Below are positions 29,385 through 48,014 of a stretch of DNA of 49,422 bases, piece after piece. The notes beneath the pieces are model-generated. The model saw only the letters and a program-made list of their open reading frames with translations. It searched no databases and was not told the origin of the DNA. This DNA comes from Smithellaceae bacterium. GTDB taxonomy: Bacteria; Desulfobacterota; Syntrophia; Syntrophales; Smithellaceae. The stretch lies in the NCBI GenBank assembly GCA_050008655.1, contig JBEKMF010000003.1:1-49422 (forward strand), in the 5' to 3' direction. Position numbers and translations under genes: made by a program. Position 1 is the first letter of the stretch. Each line of letters starts with the position of its first letter.

Positions 29385-29578
29385 CAGTGATCCCCTGCCC
29401 TATTTGCGGGAAGCGGTTATTCGATTTTAGCGGGCATTCCTGCGCTCCGGATTTTGAGGTGCGTATAAAATGCCGGAACACTAAATCTTGTGGAGTCGTA
29501 AAAATTAATGCCCAATATATAGGGAAAATATTGGGGAAAGCGTCCCTATCGCCTGGCGGCGATCACCCATGCGGGTGA
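29381..29578 (+). CDS. com: Com-family (possibly Ogr-like) zinc-ribbon regulator
   Basis: IPCPICGKRLFD...VRIKCRNTKSC; last gene of the early/middle operon. Confidence 0.7.
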   Translation: MTVIPCPICGKRLFDFSGHSCAPDFEVRIKCRNTKSCGVVKINAQYIGKILGKASLSPGGDHPCG

Positions 29579-29650
29579 CTAAAAAGAGAGGGATCAATTC
29601 CGCTGGCGCTTCGAGCTTCACCAGGGTTCGCTCTTAGCGAGTGTCATTGA
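29543..29650 (+). ncRNA. Structured repeat motif, copy A
   Basis: TCCCT..AGGGA-TCAAT-TC-cgct..agcg..TC-ATTGA. Confidence 0.65.
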
Positions 29651-29658
29651 AAATACGG

Positions 29659-29687
29659 TTGCAGTCGCAACTGGAAATTGATATAAA
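29659..29687 (+). promoter_or_regulatory. Sigma-70 promoter of a moron-like lipoprotein gene
   Basis: TTGCAG-17 nt-TATAAA with extended -10 TG. Confidence 0.6.
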
Positions 29688-29721
29688 ACAAAGGCTTTTT
29701 TAAGAGAGGTAGGTATTCATT

Positions 29722-30300
29722 ATGAAACAAAAACGCTTTTATTTATCGTGGTTGCTTATTATCACAATGTTATTTTTAATTTCCGCTTGCAGCAAGGGCG
29801 ATCCCACTGATTCCAGCACAACTCCGCCCGTTTTAGGCACTGATGTCAAAGCCTGGACGATCAAGGGTGACATGGCCTGGGAACTTGCCAATCAGTGGGC
29901 CGGTTCGGAAAACGACGGCGTGAAGGGGGCAAAAATAAAGCTCTTCCTGGATAATCCCGATGCCCGGCTGCTGTGGCCGAACAAAGCCGTTTTATTCCTC
30001 GGCGCGAGCGATCTGACGGGCGCCGCGGATCAGGATTTGACCCAGATAATAATCGATTGGGCTACAGTGTTTTGGTCGATCAAAGGCGAGACTTTCGGTG
30101 TCAGCATTCCTTTGAACACCCCGGGCAAAGATCAGGCGAAAATCGCCGAACTCAATGCCGCCATTAAGAGCATCTGCGGGACAGAGCATTATGTGGATAC
30201 CTCGGCAATGACCCTGACCTTTGATGTTGACGGACATCTTGATGCCGCCTCGAATGCACAGATTCAGGCAAAGATATTACTCATGGCCGCGGCGATATAG
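29722..30300 (+). CDS. Lipoprotein with degenerate SGNH/GDSL-like fold (moron)
   Basis: Lipobox LISAC; IKGDM, LFLGASDL, DVDGHL resemble SGNH blocks I, III and V. Confidence 0.65.
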   Translation: MKQKRFYLSWLLIITMLFLISACSKGDPTDSSTTPPVLGTDVKAWTIKGDMAWELANQWAGSENDGVKGAKIKLFLDNPDARLLWPNKAVLFLGASDLTGAADQDLTQIIIDWATVFWSIKGETFGVSIPLNTPGKDQAKIAELNAAIKSICGTEHYVDTSAMTLTFDVDGHLDAASNAQIQAKILLMAAAI

Positions 30301-30381
30301 TCCCTATTGCCTGAAGGCGAAGGGATCAATTCAGCTATCACATTTCAGCGCGATTCACTTCTGAAATGTAAGTTTCATTGA
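30301..30381 (+). ncRNA. Structured repeat motif, copy B
   Basis: TCCCT-attgcc tgaa ggcga-AGGGA-TCAAT-TC-agct..acatttcag/ctgaaatgt..agtt-TC-ATTGA-GG, ATG at 30393. Confidence 0.75.
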
Positions 30382-30392
30382 GGATAAATATT

Positions 30393-30779
30393 ATGAAGAA
30401 AAAAGCAATTAAAAAACTTTCACCTCGAGTAAAGAAATTAAAACCAAGAACGCGGCGGCGGGTATTTTTAGTAGATCGATCGGGCAAAAAAACCCATCAC
30501 GGAACACTCTCGACGGATCCGCCAAATTTATTATCAGAACCATTATCAAAGGAATTGATCGAGAAAATAGGAACAATGCCGCTGCCAGTATCGGAAGGAT
30601 TGAAATATATCCGGGTTGACGAATCTCAGTTCAGTGCCGGCGCGACTAAAAAATATTATTTAGTATTTCAATTTTCCAACTTTGGCTTTGCCCTGAATTT
30701 CAAAAAAGGCGACTCACCGCAGTTGGCAATCAGGAAATTGCAGGAACTGATAGAATATTTTAAAAGTAAGGCAGGATGA
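30393..30779 (+). CDS. Basic hypothetical protein
   Basis: RBS gagg overlaps motif B; Lys/Arg-rich N-terminus. Confidence 0.6.
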   Translation: MKKKAIKKLSPRVKKLKPRTRRRVFLVDRSGKKTHHGTLSTDPPNLLSEPLSKELIEKIGTMPLPVSEGLKYIRVDESQFSAGATKKYYLVFQFSNFGFALNFKKGDSPQLAIRKLQELIEYFKSKAG

Positions 30780-30787
30780 AATAATTC

Positions 30788-45536: not shown

Positions 45537-46003
45537 GCCAATTAACCGACATACGGGAACAAATAAAAGTCATCCTCTCCGGCGTCCCCGATATCGGCAT
45601 GGTGCATGATTACACCCGACTGGCGGTGGATTACACTACCGTATTGAATTTCTTCAAGACACCGGATGGCCAGTTTAAGGGCGTGATGTTTGCGCGGGAG
45701 AAAATGGCCAAAGAGCGCGGTAGTTCCTGGGCGCGGGCGCATGTATTTGTTTTTCGCGCCATCATGGCACTGAACGATGGAAAGCAAAGCGGCATCCAAT
45801 TCGATGGGATGCTCGATGCCATCGAACGGGAATTTGAAAAGTATGACGATCTTAACGGCACGTGTTCTACCTGTATGCCGGATTTCGGCCCGATGGCCGG
45901 GCATGCCGGAATGCAGATAACGATAATCGAAGAAAGAATGTTCGGAAACGTTCTGTGCCACTACGCGGAAATGCGTCTGTGTGCAGAGGAATATCAATCA
46001 TAA
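45533..46003 (+). CDS. Putative tail terminator/completion protein
   Basis: ATGA overlap; FGNVLCHYAE; located before the tail tube. Confidence 0.65.
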   Translation: MSQLTDIREQIKVILSGVPDIGMVHDYTRLAVDYTTVLNFFKTPDGQFKGVMFAREKMAKERGSSWARAHVFVFRAIMALNDGKQSGIQFDGMLDAIEREFEKYDDLNGTCSTCMPDFGPMAGHAGMQITIIEERMFGNVLCHYAEMRLCAEEYQS

Positions 46004-46018
46004 AACGAGAGGTGATTT

Positions 46019-46195
46019 ATGCCATTCAAATTAAAAGAAACAGCGGAGGCTTTTCAGGTTGTCGACGGTCCTTACGCCGGCAAGGATTTCAAACCGGGAA
46101 TAATTTACAACGATATCCCGCCGCAGGAAGCTAATAGATTTGAAAAAGCAAAAGATGAACCGGCGAGCAAAGGCGACAAAAAAGGAGGTAAATGA
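46019..46195 (+). CDS. Small hypothetical tail-region protein (58 aa, not in ORF track)
   Basis: RBS gaggtg; MPFKLKETAEAFQVVDGPYAGKDFKPG... Confidence 0.65.
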   Translation: MPFKLKETAEAFQVVDGPYAGKDFKPGIIYNDIPPQEANRFEKAKDEPASKGDKKGGK

Positions 46196-46197
46196 TT

Positions 46198-47487
46198 ATG
46201 CCCAGAAACTATCAAGCGACAAACAATTTAATTGCCGTTTCCGCCGCCGCGCGTGAGACGGCGATCAATACCGAGCAGACGCTGGATGTCACGATGCTCT
46301 GCGCCCTGGCCAATATTATCAATCTGGACTTCCGCCGGGAGAATAACGGCAATGAGGCCATCGGCAAAGAAGAGCCGGATGTAATTTATGATCGAGGCGC
46401 CCTGGCCAGTGCAGTTTTTGATTTCGAGAAAGCACAGCCGCAACATTTCGCCTTCTTACTGGCTTATGCTCTGGGAGTGGACACGCCCTCCGCATTGGGC
46501 GTCGGCGGTTATAAACATGTCATTACGCCGATTGCCGGAGACCTGGATGCCAGCCGCTCCATCCCCTCTTTTACGGCGGCACAGCGCTATGGCCTGACCG
46601 TCCTCAAACGGCGATTCGCCTCGATGTTTGTGGATCAAATTACAGCCACCTTCGCCCGGGATGCCTTTTGCAAAATATCCGGAACGATCAAGGGAACGGG
46701 CAAGAGAACGGATAACATCACTGAGGAAATTGTCTCCGCTTACATTGACGGGACATCTCTATCCCTGGCAGCCAATAGCGTGGAAGGAGCAGATGGTCCC
46801 ACCAGGTTAATGAATGTCCAGAGGATCAGGGTAGAATTGACGACCGGTGTCTGGACAGAAGTCGTTTATTCGGCGGTTACCGCCGGACCTCCGTCAGTGA
46901 TCACGATGGTCGCTCCGGGGGCTACTCACACGCTGAAAAACTTCAAGATTCTTTATATCCCGGCGGAATCCGGATCAGCCTGGATGACCTTTCCGGCCCG
47001 CATTACGGAAACACCGCTTATCGTCTCTCAGATGAATTTGAATGTGGGCGGAACATGGAGCGGATCGGCATTTGCCGGAGGCAGGATCCTGTCGGCGGAA
47101 ATGAAGCAGCTCGTGTGGACATTGCAGAATAATTTAAAGGTCGAATATGTCCCGGGAGCCGGCGGCGTCTATGCGGCGCGCGCTATCCGTGACGGCCGGG
47201 CGCAGATGATCAAACTCGACCGGGAATTCCGCGAATATATTATGCAGCAGCACATGGCCGACAATGACTCTATGGGCCTCTACATTCTGGCTGAAGGCGA
47301 GCTATATGATACCACCTACAAATATCAGGTGGAGATTATCTTCCCCAAAGTAGCAGTCCTGACTGCGCCGATTTCCGTGGACGGAAAGCGTTTGGCCGAA
47401 GCCGGAGATATCCAGGTGTTGGAAGACAGTACTTACGGCTCCGTGATCGTGAATGTTCAGAATAAACAAACCGCGTATGCGGGGTAG
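46198..47487 (+). CDS. Major tail (tube) protein, probably with an inserted domain
   Basis: RBS aaggagg; located before chaperones and tape measure; FLLAYALG, YKHVITP, IPSFT, VEIIFPKV; no sheath gene seen. Confidence 0.65.
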   Translation: MPRNYQATNNLIAVSAAARETAINTEQTLDVTMLCALANIINLDFRRENNGNEAIGKEEPDVIYDRGALASAVFDFEKAQPQHFAFLLAYALGVDTPSALGVGGYKHVITPIAGDLDASRSIPSFTAAQRYGLTVLKRRFASMFVDQITATFARDAFCKISGTIKGTGKRTDNITEEIVSAYIDGTSLSLAANSVEGADGPTRLMNVQRIRVELTTGVWTEVVYSAVTAGPPSVITMVAPGATHTLKNFKILYIPAESGSAWMTFPARITETPLIVSQMNLNVGGTWSGSAFAGGRILSAEMKQLVWTLQNNLKVEYVPGAGGVYAARAIRDGRAQMIKLDREFREYIMQQHMADNDSMGLYILAEGELYDTTYKYQVEIIFPKVAVLTAPISVDGKRLAEAGDIQVLEDSTYGSVIVNVQNKQTAYAG

Positions 47488-47505
47488 AAAAATTAAAGGA
47501 AGAAG

Positions 47506-47596
47506 TCCTATCCGCCAGGGAAGCGCTCCGGCGGATAGGATCAATTCAACTATCAAATTTCAGCGCGCTTAACTTCTGAAATTTGAGTTTTATTGA
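47506..47596 (+). ncRNA. Structured repeat motif, copy E
   Basis: TCCTATCCGCC..GGCGGATAGGA-TCAAT-TC-aac..tcaaatttcag/ctgaaatttga-gtt-TT-ATTGA-GAGG, ATG at 47610. Confidence 0.75.
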
Positions 47597-47609
47597 GAGG
47601 ATTTTTAAG

Positions 47610-48014
47610 ATGCCCAGACTATTATCAGACGAAATAAAATCAATTAAAGGCAAAGATACAGCAACTGAAAGCATGTTTACCTTGTTTTATCGTCCACCCA
47701 CGGTCGAAGAAAGAATCAGTTATGCCAATTCTTTTGTGACCCGGAAGGGAAATAAAATCGAAACCTCCCTGGGAGAGACCAGAATCAATAACGGCTTAAA
47801 AATAATGACTGGCTTTGACGATAATGCATTTCTCAAAAAAGATTCTCAAGGCAATAAGGTCCCTTTGTCTTCCGATCCTAAATCAAAGAATTATGATCCA
47901 AAGTGGAAAGAGATCGTACGACAATATGCCTCTGATGTCGCCGCATGGCTGGCCATGCAGGTATTCGAGGCGGGATTGCTGAAGGTCGAGGATACAAACG
48001 AGGACCCTACTTAG
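47610..48014 (+). CDS. Tail assembly chaperone (gpG-like)
   Basis: Between tail tube and tape measure; YRPPTVEER; ends EDPT*. Confidence 0.65.
   Translation: MPRLLSDEIKSIKGKDTATESMFTLFYRPPTVEERISYANSFVTRKGNKIETSLGETRINNGLKIMTGFDDNAFLKKDSQGNKVPLSSDPKSKNYDPKWKEIVRQYASDVAAWLAMQVFEAGLLKVEDTNEDPT

Follow-up and report, generated by a model that had tools for sequence, protein, structure and literature searches.

The window analyzed here was a whole contig of 49,422 bp from a Smithellaceae bacterium, belonging to a host assembly (G000) of 2.36 Mb in 207 contigs that was 82% complete. Ordinary bacterial genes were followed by a Mu-like prophage, the late genes of which lay on the + strand throughout. 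In the late region of the prophage, five copies (A to E) of a double-hairpin unit were found, and their positions, structures, and junctions with the neighboring genes are given in Table 1.

Table 1. Features of the window. H1 and H2, first and second hairpin of a unit; R1, covariance model of H2; SD, Shine-Dalgarno sequence; ORF, open reading frame; HTH, helix-turn-helix.
Feature	Position	Strand	Description or match	Junction
Ordinary bacterial genes	1 to ~19 kb		Response regulator, BON and OmpA-type proteins (Pfam)	
Mu-like prophage	from ~19.5 kb		HTH repressor on - strand, Mu-type transposase, AAA+ partner	
Mu-type transposase	21258-23549	+	Pfam Mu-transpos_C, DDE_2; prophage marker	
Copy A	29543-29650	+	Branched H1 29543-29593, H2 29590-29650; R1 60.4 bits, E 6e-11	Overlaps stop of 65-aa ORF; 71 nt upstream of ATG 29722, no SD fusion
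192-aa ORF	29722-30300	+	Signal-peptide-like N-terminus; variable block	Between copies A and B
Copy B	30301-30381	+	H1 30301-30325, H2 30322-30381; R1 71.5 bits	H1 0 nt after stop 30298-30300; closing GA enters GAGGA, ATG at 30393
Cold-shock-domain protein, 65 aa	31630-31827	+	Pfam CSD, E 1.7e-30	
Large terminase	34824-36458	+	PHROGs	
Copy C	36440-36529	+	H1 36440-36473, H2 36470-36529; R1 78.6 bits	Terminase stop 36456-36458 inside H1; H2 then GAGAGG, portal ATG 36539
Portal	36539-38080	+	PHROGs	
Sixth exact GGATCAATTC	38100-38109	-	Without hairpin partner; not a family member	Within ORF
Capsid/protease fusion	39419-42085	+	PHROGs	
Paralogous cement-like gene pair	42149-43123 and 43212-43691	+	Both match one gene in related phages	
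Copy D	43132-43200	+	H1 43132-43156, short H2 43153-43200 with GGATCC inner stem; R1 35.3 bits, E 1.5e-5	Begins 8 nt after stop; H2 then GGAGGA, ATG 43212
Copy E	47506-47596	+	H1 47506-47540, H2 47537-47596; R1 71.1 bits	Begins 18 nt after stop; H2 then GAGGA, ATG 47610

All five units folded as TCC-hairpin-GGA followed by TCAAT-TC-hairpin-T(C/T)-ATTGA. The first hairpin (H1) was closed by the pair TCC(C)/(G)GGA, and the second hairpin (H2) was closed by TCAAT/ATTGA with a 2x2 TC/T(C/T) loop. This co-oriented architecture had been described in a first-pass annotation of the window, and the description proved accurate: a covariance model of H2 (R1), applied with filters off, matched exactly these five places, all on the + strand, with scores of 35.3-78.6 bits (E 1.5e-5 to 7e-15), and gave no match over the host part and the early region of the window. 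The core that had been called invariant, GGATCAATTC, was exact in all five + strand units (29591, 30323, 36471, 43154, and 47538). It also occurred once on the - strand (38100), where R1 gave no match up to E 1 with filters off. The 10-mer alone, with one mismatch allowed, was found 9 times versus 5.84 expected, and 14 of 100 shuffles reached 9; this was within chance, and the structured unit was beyond chance. The folding z-scores against shuffles were -3.67 for B, -6.06 for C, -5.14 for D, and -5.88 for E, and that of copy A was -1.48, so that A was the only copy not significant by folding energy.

An alignment of the H2 parts of the five window copies and 20 look-alikes from G000 (n = 25) was the basis of R1. 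The results showed that 94.9% of the cells were paired and that 14 of the 19 pairs changed on both sides, a level reached by none of 500 shuffles, in agreement with the earlier claim that the variable stems keep pairing. None of the slid registers of the alignment came near the observed pairing. The foot of H2 also covaried, with C-G in 12 copies and U-A in 11. The basic unit consisted of a variable GC-rich H1, the junction GGGAT(C/T/-)AATTC, and a 59-60-nt H2 of 19 bp with internal loops, which carried the conserved foot, the 2x2 loop of pyrimidines, and a 12-nt loop that was semi-conserved. G-T pairs numbered 146 on the top strand versus 82 on the bottom strand, and the bottom strand was more stable on average. 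Short D-type H2 modules were missed by R1 (for example in the viral record L112), and all family counts given below are floors. No match to an Rfam family, which the first-pass annotation had allowed for, was obtained at gathering score in the whole window, and a search over 29400-47800 with E up to 5 returned only unrelated weak matches, none of them on any unit. No match of copy C was found by blastn in GenBank phages or PLSDB plasmids. A description of the repeat family was not found in the literature searched, a coverage that left outside the viral lists of MITEs (miniature transposable elements with inverted repeats) behind PMC11602168, and a literature search with the 10-mers returned only primers.

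The positions of the units relative to the genes were also as first described. Copies B to E overlapped a stop codon or began 0-18 nt downstream of one, ended directly on GAGG or GGAGG, and were followed by an ATG 9-13 nt further on; copy A overlapped a stop codon and was not joined to an SD. The predicted accessibility of the SD at the units was 0.12-0.48, which was middling and not decisive. A consensus scan gave 21 promoter-like and 34 terminator-like sites, all of them outside the five units. The stems had been proposed to be mixed between the copies, with B sharing H1 with D and H2 with C and E. This held for B and E, which were each other's nearest kin in G000 (inner H2 86% alike), and for the H1 of B and D, which were alike as judged by eye. 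The nearest kin of C were host copies (76%). Copy A was closest to the host copy C160 (84%), and D had no kin above 58% in this genome. Since the nearest kin differed among the five copies, several independent acquisitions are the simplest reading of these sequences. The sequencing runs listed for the locus comprised a single DNA run, probably that of the source assembly, and no RNA run; the contigs of the DNA run gave no alternative joint. No close relative of the prophage was available in the host family for an empty-site comparison of the five junctions, the best terminase identity being 52%.

Copies of the unit were spread over the host genome. The exact 10-mer occurred 33 times in G000 versus 0 for the reversed control, and R1 detected at least 128 modules, a floor because only 150 of 1374 candidates were scored. 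Together with copy D, which was found in the scan of the window, these hits made a set of 129 modules, 124 of them outside the prophage, and the gene context was taken from simple ORF calls (88% coding). The modules formed 94 arrays, 72 of which were intergenic, and 28 of the 29 multi-module arrays lay on one strand in head-to-tail order. The host arrays were often chains of 2-4 scored modules, longer by eye, built on the pattern ...GGGAT(C/T)AATTC-hairpin-TCATT(G/A)A|TTC-hairpin-..., and modules of other types were seen 5' of H1. Between co-directional genes, 24 arrays had the same orientation as the genes (4 of these were prophage copies, leaving 20 from the host) versus 24 with the opposite orientation. 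The top strand of the modules was independent of the local GC skew (46:46, with the skew being a proxy on short contigs). Only 5 of the 124 host modules stood at translation starts, four with an SD and a start codon within 10 nt and one with an ATG at the foot. Genome-wide copies in random orientation and unrelated to start codons had been named in the first-pass annotation as the finding that would speak against its regulatory reading, and for the host chromosome this was what we found.

Other features of the host modules were noted in passing. The larger modules (contigs C51, C87, C186, C68, and C175 of G000) had a recurring loop of ~20 nt like GTGACCTTTAGGTTATGCAC inside an H2-type stem, which formed a second conserved motif. 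The sole array of mixed orientation (C28:700-1150 of G000, two + and two - modules) lay around a stretch whose translation looked like a tRNA gene region. On the large contigs C1-C3 of the relative G013, the modules were mostly on the - strand (by eye ~4:1 on C1).

Among 40 relatives, in each of which at most 133 candidates were scored, R1 matched in 21 of the 24 other genomes of the same family (f1) versus 2 of the 16 that belonged to the order's other families. In the genus itself, two genomes had 0 copies (one of them, G003, was 95% complete), six had 1-6, and six had 66-121. Such scatter among congeners is what expansions and losses of a repeat look like. Presence/absence polymorphism was found at two orthologous sites. 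At the C6 locus, G011 aligned to both flanks (89-91%) but had no counterpart of ~150 nt present in G000 and G013, which held different inner hairpins. At the C24 locus, spacers of 34 nt in G002 and 47 nt in G010 separated the stop codon from the next SD, and the gap of ~150 nt in G000 (148-158 nt between the aligned flanks) held a multi-module element. The empty-site spacers were too diverged for a target duplication to be read. The H2 arms were themselves inverted repeats. The left flank of the element showed only an (A)T preference at -1/-2, with T present in 22 of 37 copies from viruses and in 51 of 80 from the host. Only ordinary host genes were found where an autonomous parent was sought between inverted copies in G000, a search that did not cover insertion sequence (IS) families systematically. 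The Pfam family Y1_Tnp (PF01797) had 0 matches in G000 (82% complete), G010 (95%, 117 copies), and G011 (98%, 121 copies), and was present in the low-copy genomes G007, G008, and G012. A link to a Y1 transposase was not supported, because the occurrence of the gene did not track copy number.

Copies on viral contigs were collected by three IMG/VR pattern scans that had no flank in the pattern, followed by filtering with R1, which gave 51 distinct copies on ~30 viral contigs. Two forms fused to translation starts were assigned by an automatic rule. In form 1 (12 of 51), ...TCATTGA or ...TCATTAG ran into GGAGG or GAGG with a start codon 3-12 nt on, which was the arrangement of the window. In form 2 (15 of 51), the sequence read ...(G)GAG(C/T)CTCATT-ATG, so that the 3' arm of H2 contained the SD-like GGAG and its foot carried the start codon. 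The N-termini behind the form-2 copies all differed, which pointed to many separate junctions. The leftover spacer, of 0-18 nt, was on the side of the stop codon, and H2 was never separated from the SD by it. The strand and ribosome-binding-site bias raised by the first-pass annotation was split: none was seen in the host, whereas 33 of 50 viral copies were co-oriented with the downstream ORF (17 of 50 were antisense) and 27 of 51 were start-fused. Antisense copies fused to a start at their H1 end were not enriched (6 of 49 viral versus 11 of 124 host). Of the seven copies in the complete provirus G132 (46 kb), five were sense-oriented form 2 before five different genes, and one gene was bracketed by two units; in the complete provirus G136, two of seven copies were sense-oriented form 2. 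The cold-shock protein of the prophage was ruled out as a shared partner because none of five other element-bearing viral records encoded one.

Two sequence motifs next to viral copies were observed in addition. A motif like (T)AAAGGTAC(A/G)A preceded H1 in at least six copies (among L156, L155, L184, G132 at 13413, and L112), and since its TAA was often the upstream stop codon, a conserved linker may reach to the stop. The copies at L147:3672-3730 and L130:7922-7980 had the same 3' motif, (A)TGCCCCACAA-CGATTT, in place of the SD, and this motif may be another regulatory site.

The units were not found at the same places in related phages. No R1 match was obtained in the two genome-derived relatives L035 and L036, the terminases of which were 75-76% identical to that of the prophage, and no credible match in 22 further loci of 285,917 nt (18 IMG/VR relatives with 58-78% identity and four loci from the host family). 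True relatives carried units elsewhere. In L137 (portal 62%), a unit lay between the homologues of the genes at 27163 and 27486, which abutted in the window, and none lay before the portal. In L098 and L112, which had homologues of 46192-47487 (65-66%), a unit was located upstream of the 46192 homologue, and L112 had a D-type unit at the junction that held copy E in the window. A full H1 and H2 unit with a short GGATCC-type H2 as in copy D, overlooked by R1, was seen in L112 at ~4690-4790 on the - strand. Judged from these sequences, the unit is not a trait inherited within this lineage of phages. Since related phages had the unit at other junctions or none at all, our results argued against the proposal that it is a conserved device setting the ratios of virion proteins. 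Few related viral pairs shared a junction with a unit, and three such pairs were compared. The unit was 99% identical in L156/L229 (flanks 72-86%), 99% identical in L153/L152 (flanks 58-84%, with downstream proteins that agreed only over the first dozen residues), and 100% identical in L155/L226, where identity dropped to 84% just upstream. The better conservation of the unit than of its flanks fits a constrained unit as well as one at which recombination takes place, and three pairs were too few to tell the two apart.

These results suggest that the five units probably belong to a lineage-specific palindromic repeat that the host carries at high copy number, resembling repetitive extragenic palindromes (REPs) and bacterial interspersed mosaic elements (BIMEs) or the MITEs, which has entered phages repeatedly and persisted there as an intercistronic hairpin from stop to start. 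Direct observations behind this reading were the family membership, the covarying structure, the genome-wide spread, the patchy copy number, the empty sites, the non-orthologous phage positions, and the bias of phage copies toward starts. A mobile hairpin repeat fitted best because the genome-wide copies were randomly oriented and so rarely stood at starts. The repeat family fills intergenic DNA of the host in either orientation and often in head-to-tail arrays; it would spread or be lost at the DNA level and enter the phages of the host lineage again and again. In compact phage operons the survivors are mostly single sense units that bridge a stop codon and the next start. On the late polycistronic mRNA, the unit might act like a transcribed REP, with H1 serving the upstream cistron as a 3' barrier and H2 forming a structured 5' edge or a cleavable stem that tunes access to the next ribosome-binding site. 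As the best-conserved stretch between diverged phages, it could also offer homology for gene-precise recombination. The consequences proposed for H1 and H2 at the RNA level are likely but unproven.

Several points weighed against this reading. Neither a mobilizing enzyme, nor a terminal repeat with target duplication, nor an autonomous parent was found in the searches described above, and the word mobile thus rested on the two polymorphic loci and the scatter of copy number. The contrast in start fusion between viral and host copies (Fisher p 4.8e-13) was overstated because the phage and host samples differed in intergenic length; gaps in phages are short, and any insert that is tolerated must touch its neighbors. 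Some of the viral copies were pseudo-replicates (L152/L153 and L156/L229). All five window copies were sense-oriented, yet the two-sided binomial p was only 0.06. Counts of the strand of folding in a fixed register (G-U versus A-C) were 33:22 for the host (p 0.18) and 43:42 for the viral copies, the latter in poor register. In addition, a selected role in translation is hinted at by the 0-nt gap to the SD and by the 15 different junctions at which the stem contains the SD, and with such a role the description of a repeat that happens to survive would be too weak.

REP hairpins that are transcribed inside operons alter the mRNA stability and the translation of neighboring cistrons. REPs and BIMEs with their RAYT (REP-associated tyrosine) transposases are known from Enterobacteria and Pseudomonas (PMC2817692). 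The present family was similar in having more than 100 copies per genome and in its extragenic, imperfect palindromes, composite arrays, and lineage specificity. It differed in its 59-60-nt hairpin with conserved foot and loop, in the separate H1, in arrays that were head-to-tail (28 of 29) and not alternating, in that no RAYT tracked the copies here (with G000 82% complete), and in the strong start-fused form in phages. A survey of MITEs shared by prokaryotes and viruses described non-coding host repeats that were mostly intergenic and also occurred in (pro)phages, with lysogeny proposed as the route and with MITEs in only 0.01% of viral genomes (PMC11602168). The phenomenon was the same in outline, a non-coding host repeat in (pro)phages; unlike the MITEs described there, the family had five copies in this prophage and seven in each of two complete proviruses, and neither a cognate IS nor terminal repeats flanked by a target duplication were defined for it.

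A stronger version of the repeat hypothesis, which we regard as possible and clearly less probable, is that the unit is a self-spreading, portable intercistronic cassette, a host repeat adopted by phages as a standard stop-to-start linker with a conserved hairpin that holds the ribosome-binding site and, in one of its forms, also the start codon. One trans-acting factor or nuclease could then gate many genes, and the same patch could swap whole genes. If the fusion to starts and the conservation in phages reflect function, the unit would exemplify in nature how a selfish repeat can be recruited as a standard part between cistrons, and it would give access to the influence of small repeats on gene expression and mosaic exchange of genes in phages.

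The first-pass annotation had favored a dedicated cis-regulatory RNA of the phage, which would gate translation or serve as an RNase III-type processing site and so set the ratios of virion proteins. On such a reading the host copies would be secondary spill-over. The link to the ribosome-binding site on which this was based was real and recurred in independent phage contigs, and an effect on translation or mRNA in phages is therefore possible. Fusion to an SD or ATG in sense orientation in four of five window copies and 27 of 51 viral copies, the placement of an SD-like GGAG and the AUG within H2 in form 2, the 19-bp H2 with its internal loops, the retention of the element at 99% in two related phage pairs despite diverged flanks, and the five form-2 copies among the seven of G132 were all consistent with it. 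As the identity of the element, however, it is unlikely, given at least 124 host copies in random orientation with only 5 at starts, different junctions or absence in related phages, the antisense placement of 17 of 50 viral copies relative to the ORF downstream, accessibility values without a clear off-state, no Rfam family matching the units, and no shared cold-shock partner. A riboregulator would be at most a possible recruitment of the repeat in phages.

Two known systems come close to a regulatory RNA of this type. In phage T7, the RNase III hairpins are intercistronic, of ~20 bp with internal loops, and lie on long polycistronic mRNA, where a hairpin that protects the 3' end is left after cleavage and the ribosome-binding site that follows can be released. 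The present hairpins were intercistronic too and of similar size with internal loops; they had no sequence likeness to the T7 sites, which are not known to be host repeats. The start-associated sequences (SAS) and extended SAS (ESAS) of Cluster K mycobacteriophages lie in one orientation a few bases before start codons and contain the SD; about half of the SAS have inverted repeats with a spacer of variable length in front of them, and they are thought to concern translation initiation (PMC3203893). They were the nearest functional look-alike of the start-fused units, and they were essentially absent from their host genome, with sites conserved by gene family. The present family, by contrast, had at least 124 host modules outside the prophage and stood at different junctions in related phages. 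The SAS 13-mer GGGATAGGAGCCC had one match with two mismatches on the - strand of the window versus 1.07 expected, and the motif was absent here.

It is rather improbable that the unit is mainly a recombination linker, kept as a homology patch by which phages swap whole genes, as discussed for cassettes in T4-type phages. These promoter/stem-loop (PeSL) cassettes are repeated intergenic border motifs tied to gene insertion, deletion, and replacement (PMC2839356, PMC4122927). The border position and the gene-shuffling aspect were alike, and the absence of promoter- or terminator-like sites coinciding with the five units in the consensus scan was a difference. PeSLs are not known as host-genome repeats. 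Copies A and B bracketed an orphan ORF in a block without homologues in the closest relative, copy D separated two paralogues that matched a single gene in relatives (45% for 42149-43123 and 63% for 43212-43691, to one gene of L042) and stood exactly in between, the bracketed gene of G132 had a unit on either side, and the level of identity changed at the element in L153/L152, L156/L229, and L155/L226. However, C and E lay between conserved core genes, only three pairs were informative, breakpoints at the best-conserved stretch are expected whatever its purpose, and the host arrays have no such role. The least probable explanation, in which the unit is a single-strand DNA hairpin moved by a Y1 transposase (IS200/IS605 or RAYT) like classical REPs and palindrome-associated elements, could draw on the conserved foot with its TTGAT, which we take to be the target of ISDra2, on head-to-tail arrays in which each unit might recreate its own target, and on the strand excess in G013, but it was not supported by the distribution of Y1_Tnp, by the orientation relative to GC skew, or by the left flank, which had no fixed target beyond (A)T, so that of the mobile hairpin suggested as an alternative in the first-pass annotation, the mobile repeat was favored and the Y1-type mechanism was not.

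With a probable host repeat as the identity of the five units, what looked like a striking phage riboregulator was first of all a member of a host repeat family, which calls for caution in motif hunting in prophages. The analysis defined a new repeat family, well structured and already described by a covariance model, and because the family marks a bacterial family and its phages, it could link uncultured viral contigs to their hosts. What was unusual was how cleanly phage copies were joined to starts, with 27 of 51 falling into two fixed registers, and how strongly they were conserved in two related viral pairs.

Some features around the units were noted besides. The block 27163-33583 was almost without homologues in 11 related phage loci and had no counterpart in the closest relative. 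It contained a GH108 lysin-like gene, an SLT transglycosylase, the cold-shock gene, and orphan ORFs, and it looks like a variable lysis/accessory region. The 192-aa ORF at 29722-30300 in this block had no Pfam or PHROG family and no homologue in the 11 related loci. The second of the cement-like paralogues (43212-43691) had a weak match to Phage_cement_2 (E 9.5e-4) that was below the cut-off. From ~80 nt upstream through the cold-shock gene (31549-31839, +), a sub-threshold match to the cspA thermoregulator RF01766 was obtained (38 bits versus a gathering score of 78). A strong hairpin like an intrinsic terminator, with 16 pairs followed by a T-run, was present at 30897-30932 (+), 3' of the ORF 30393-30779, and likely marks a transcript end within the variable block.

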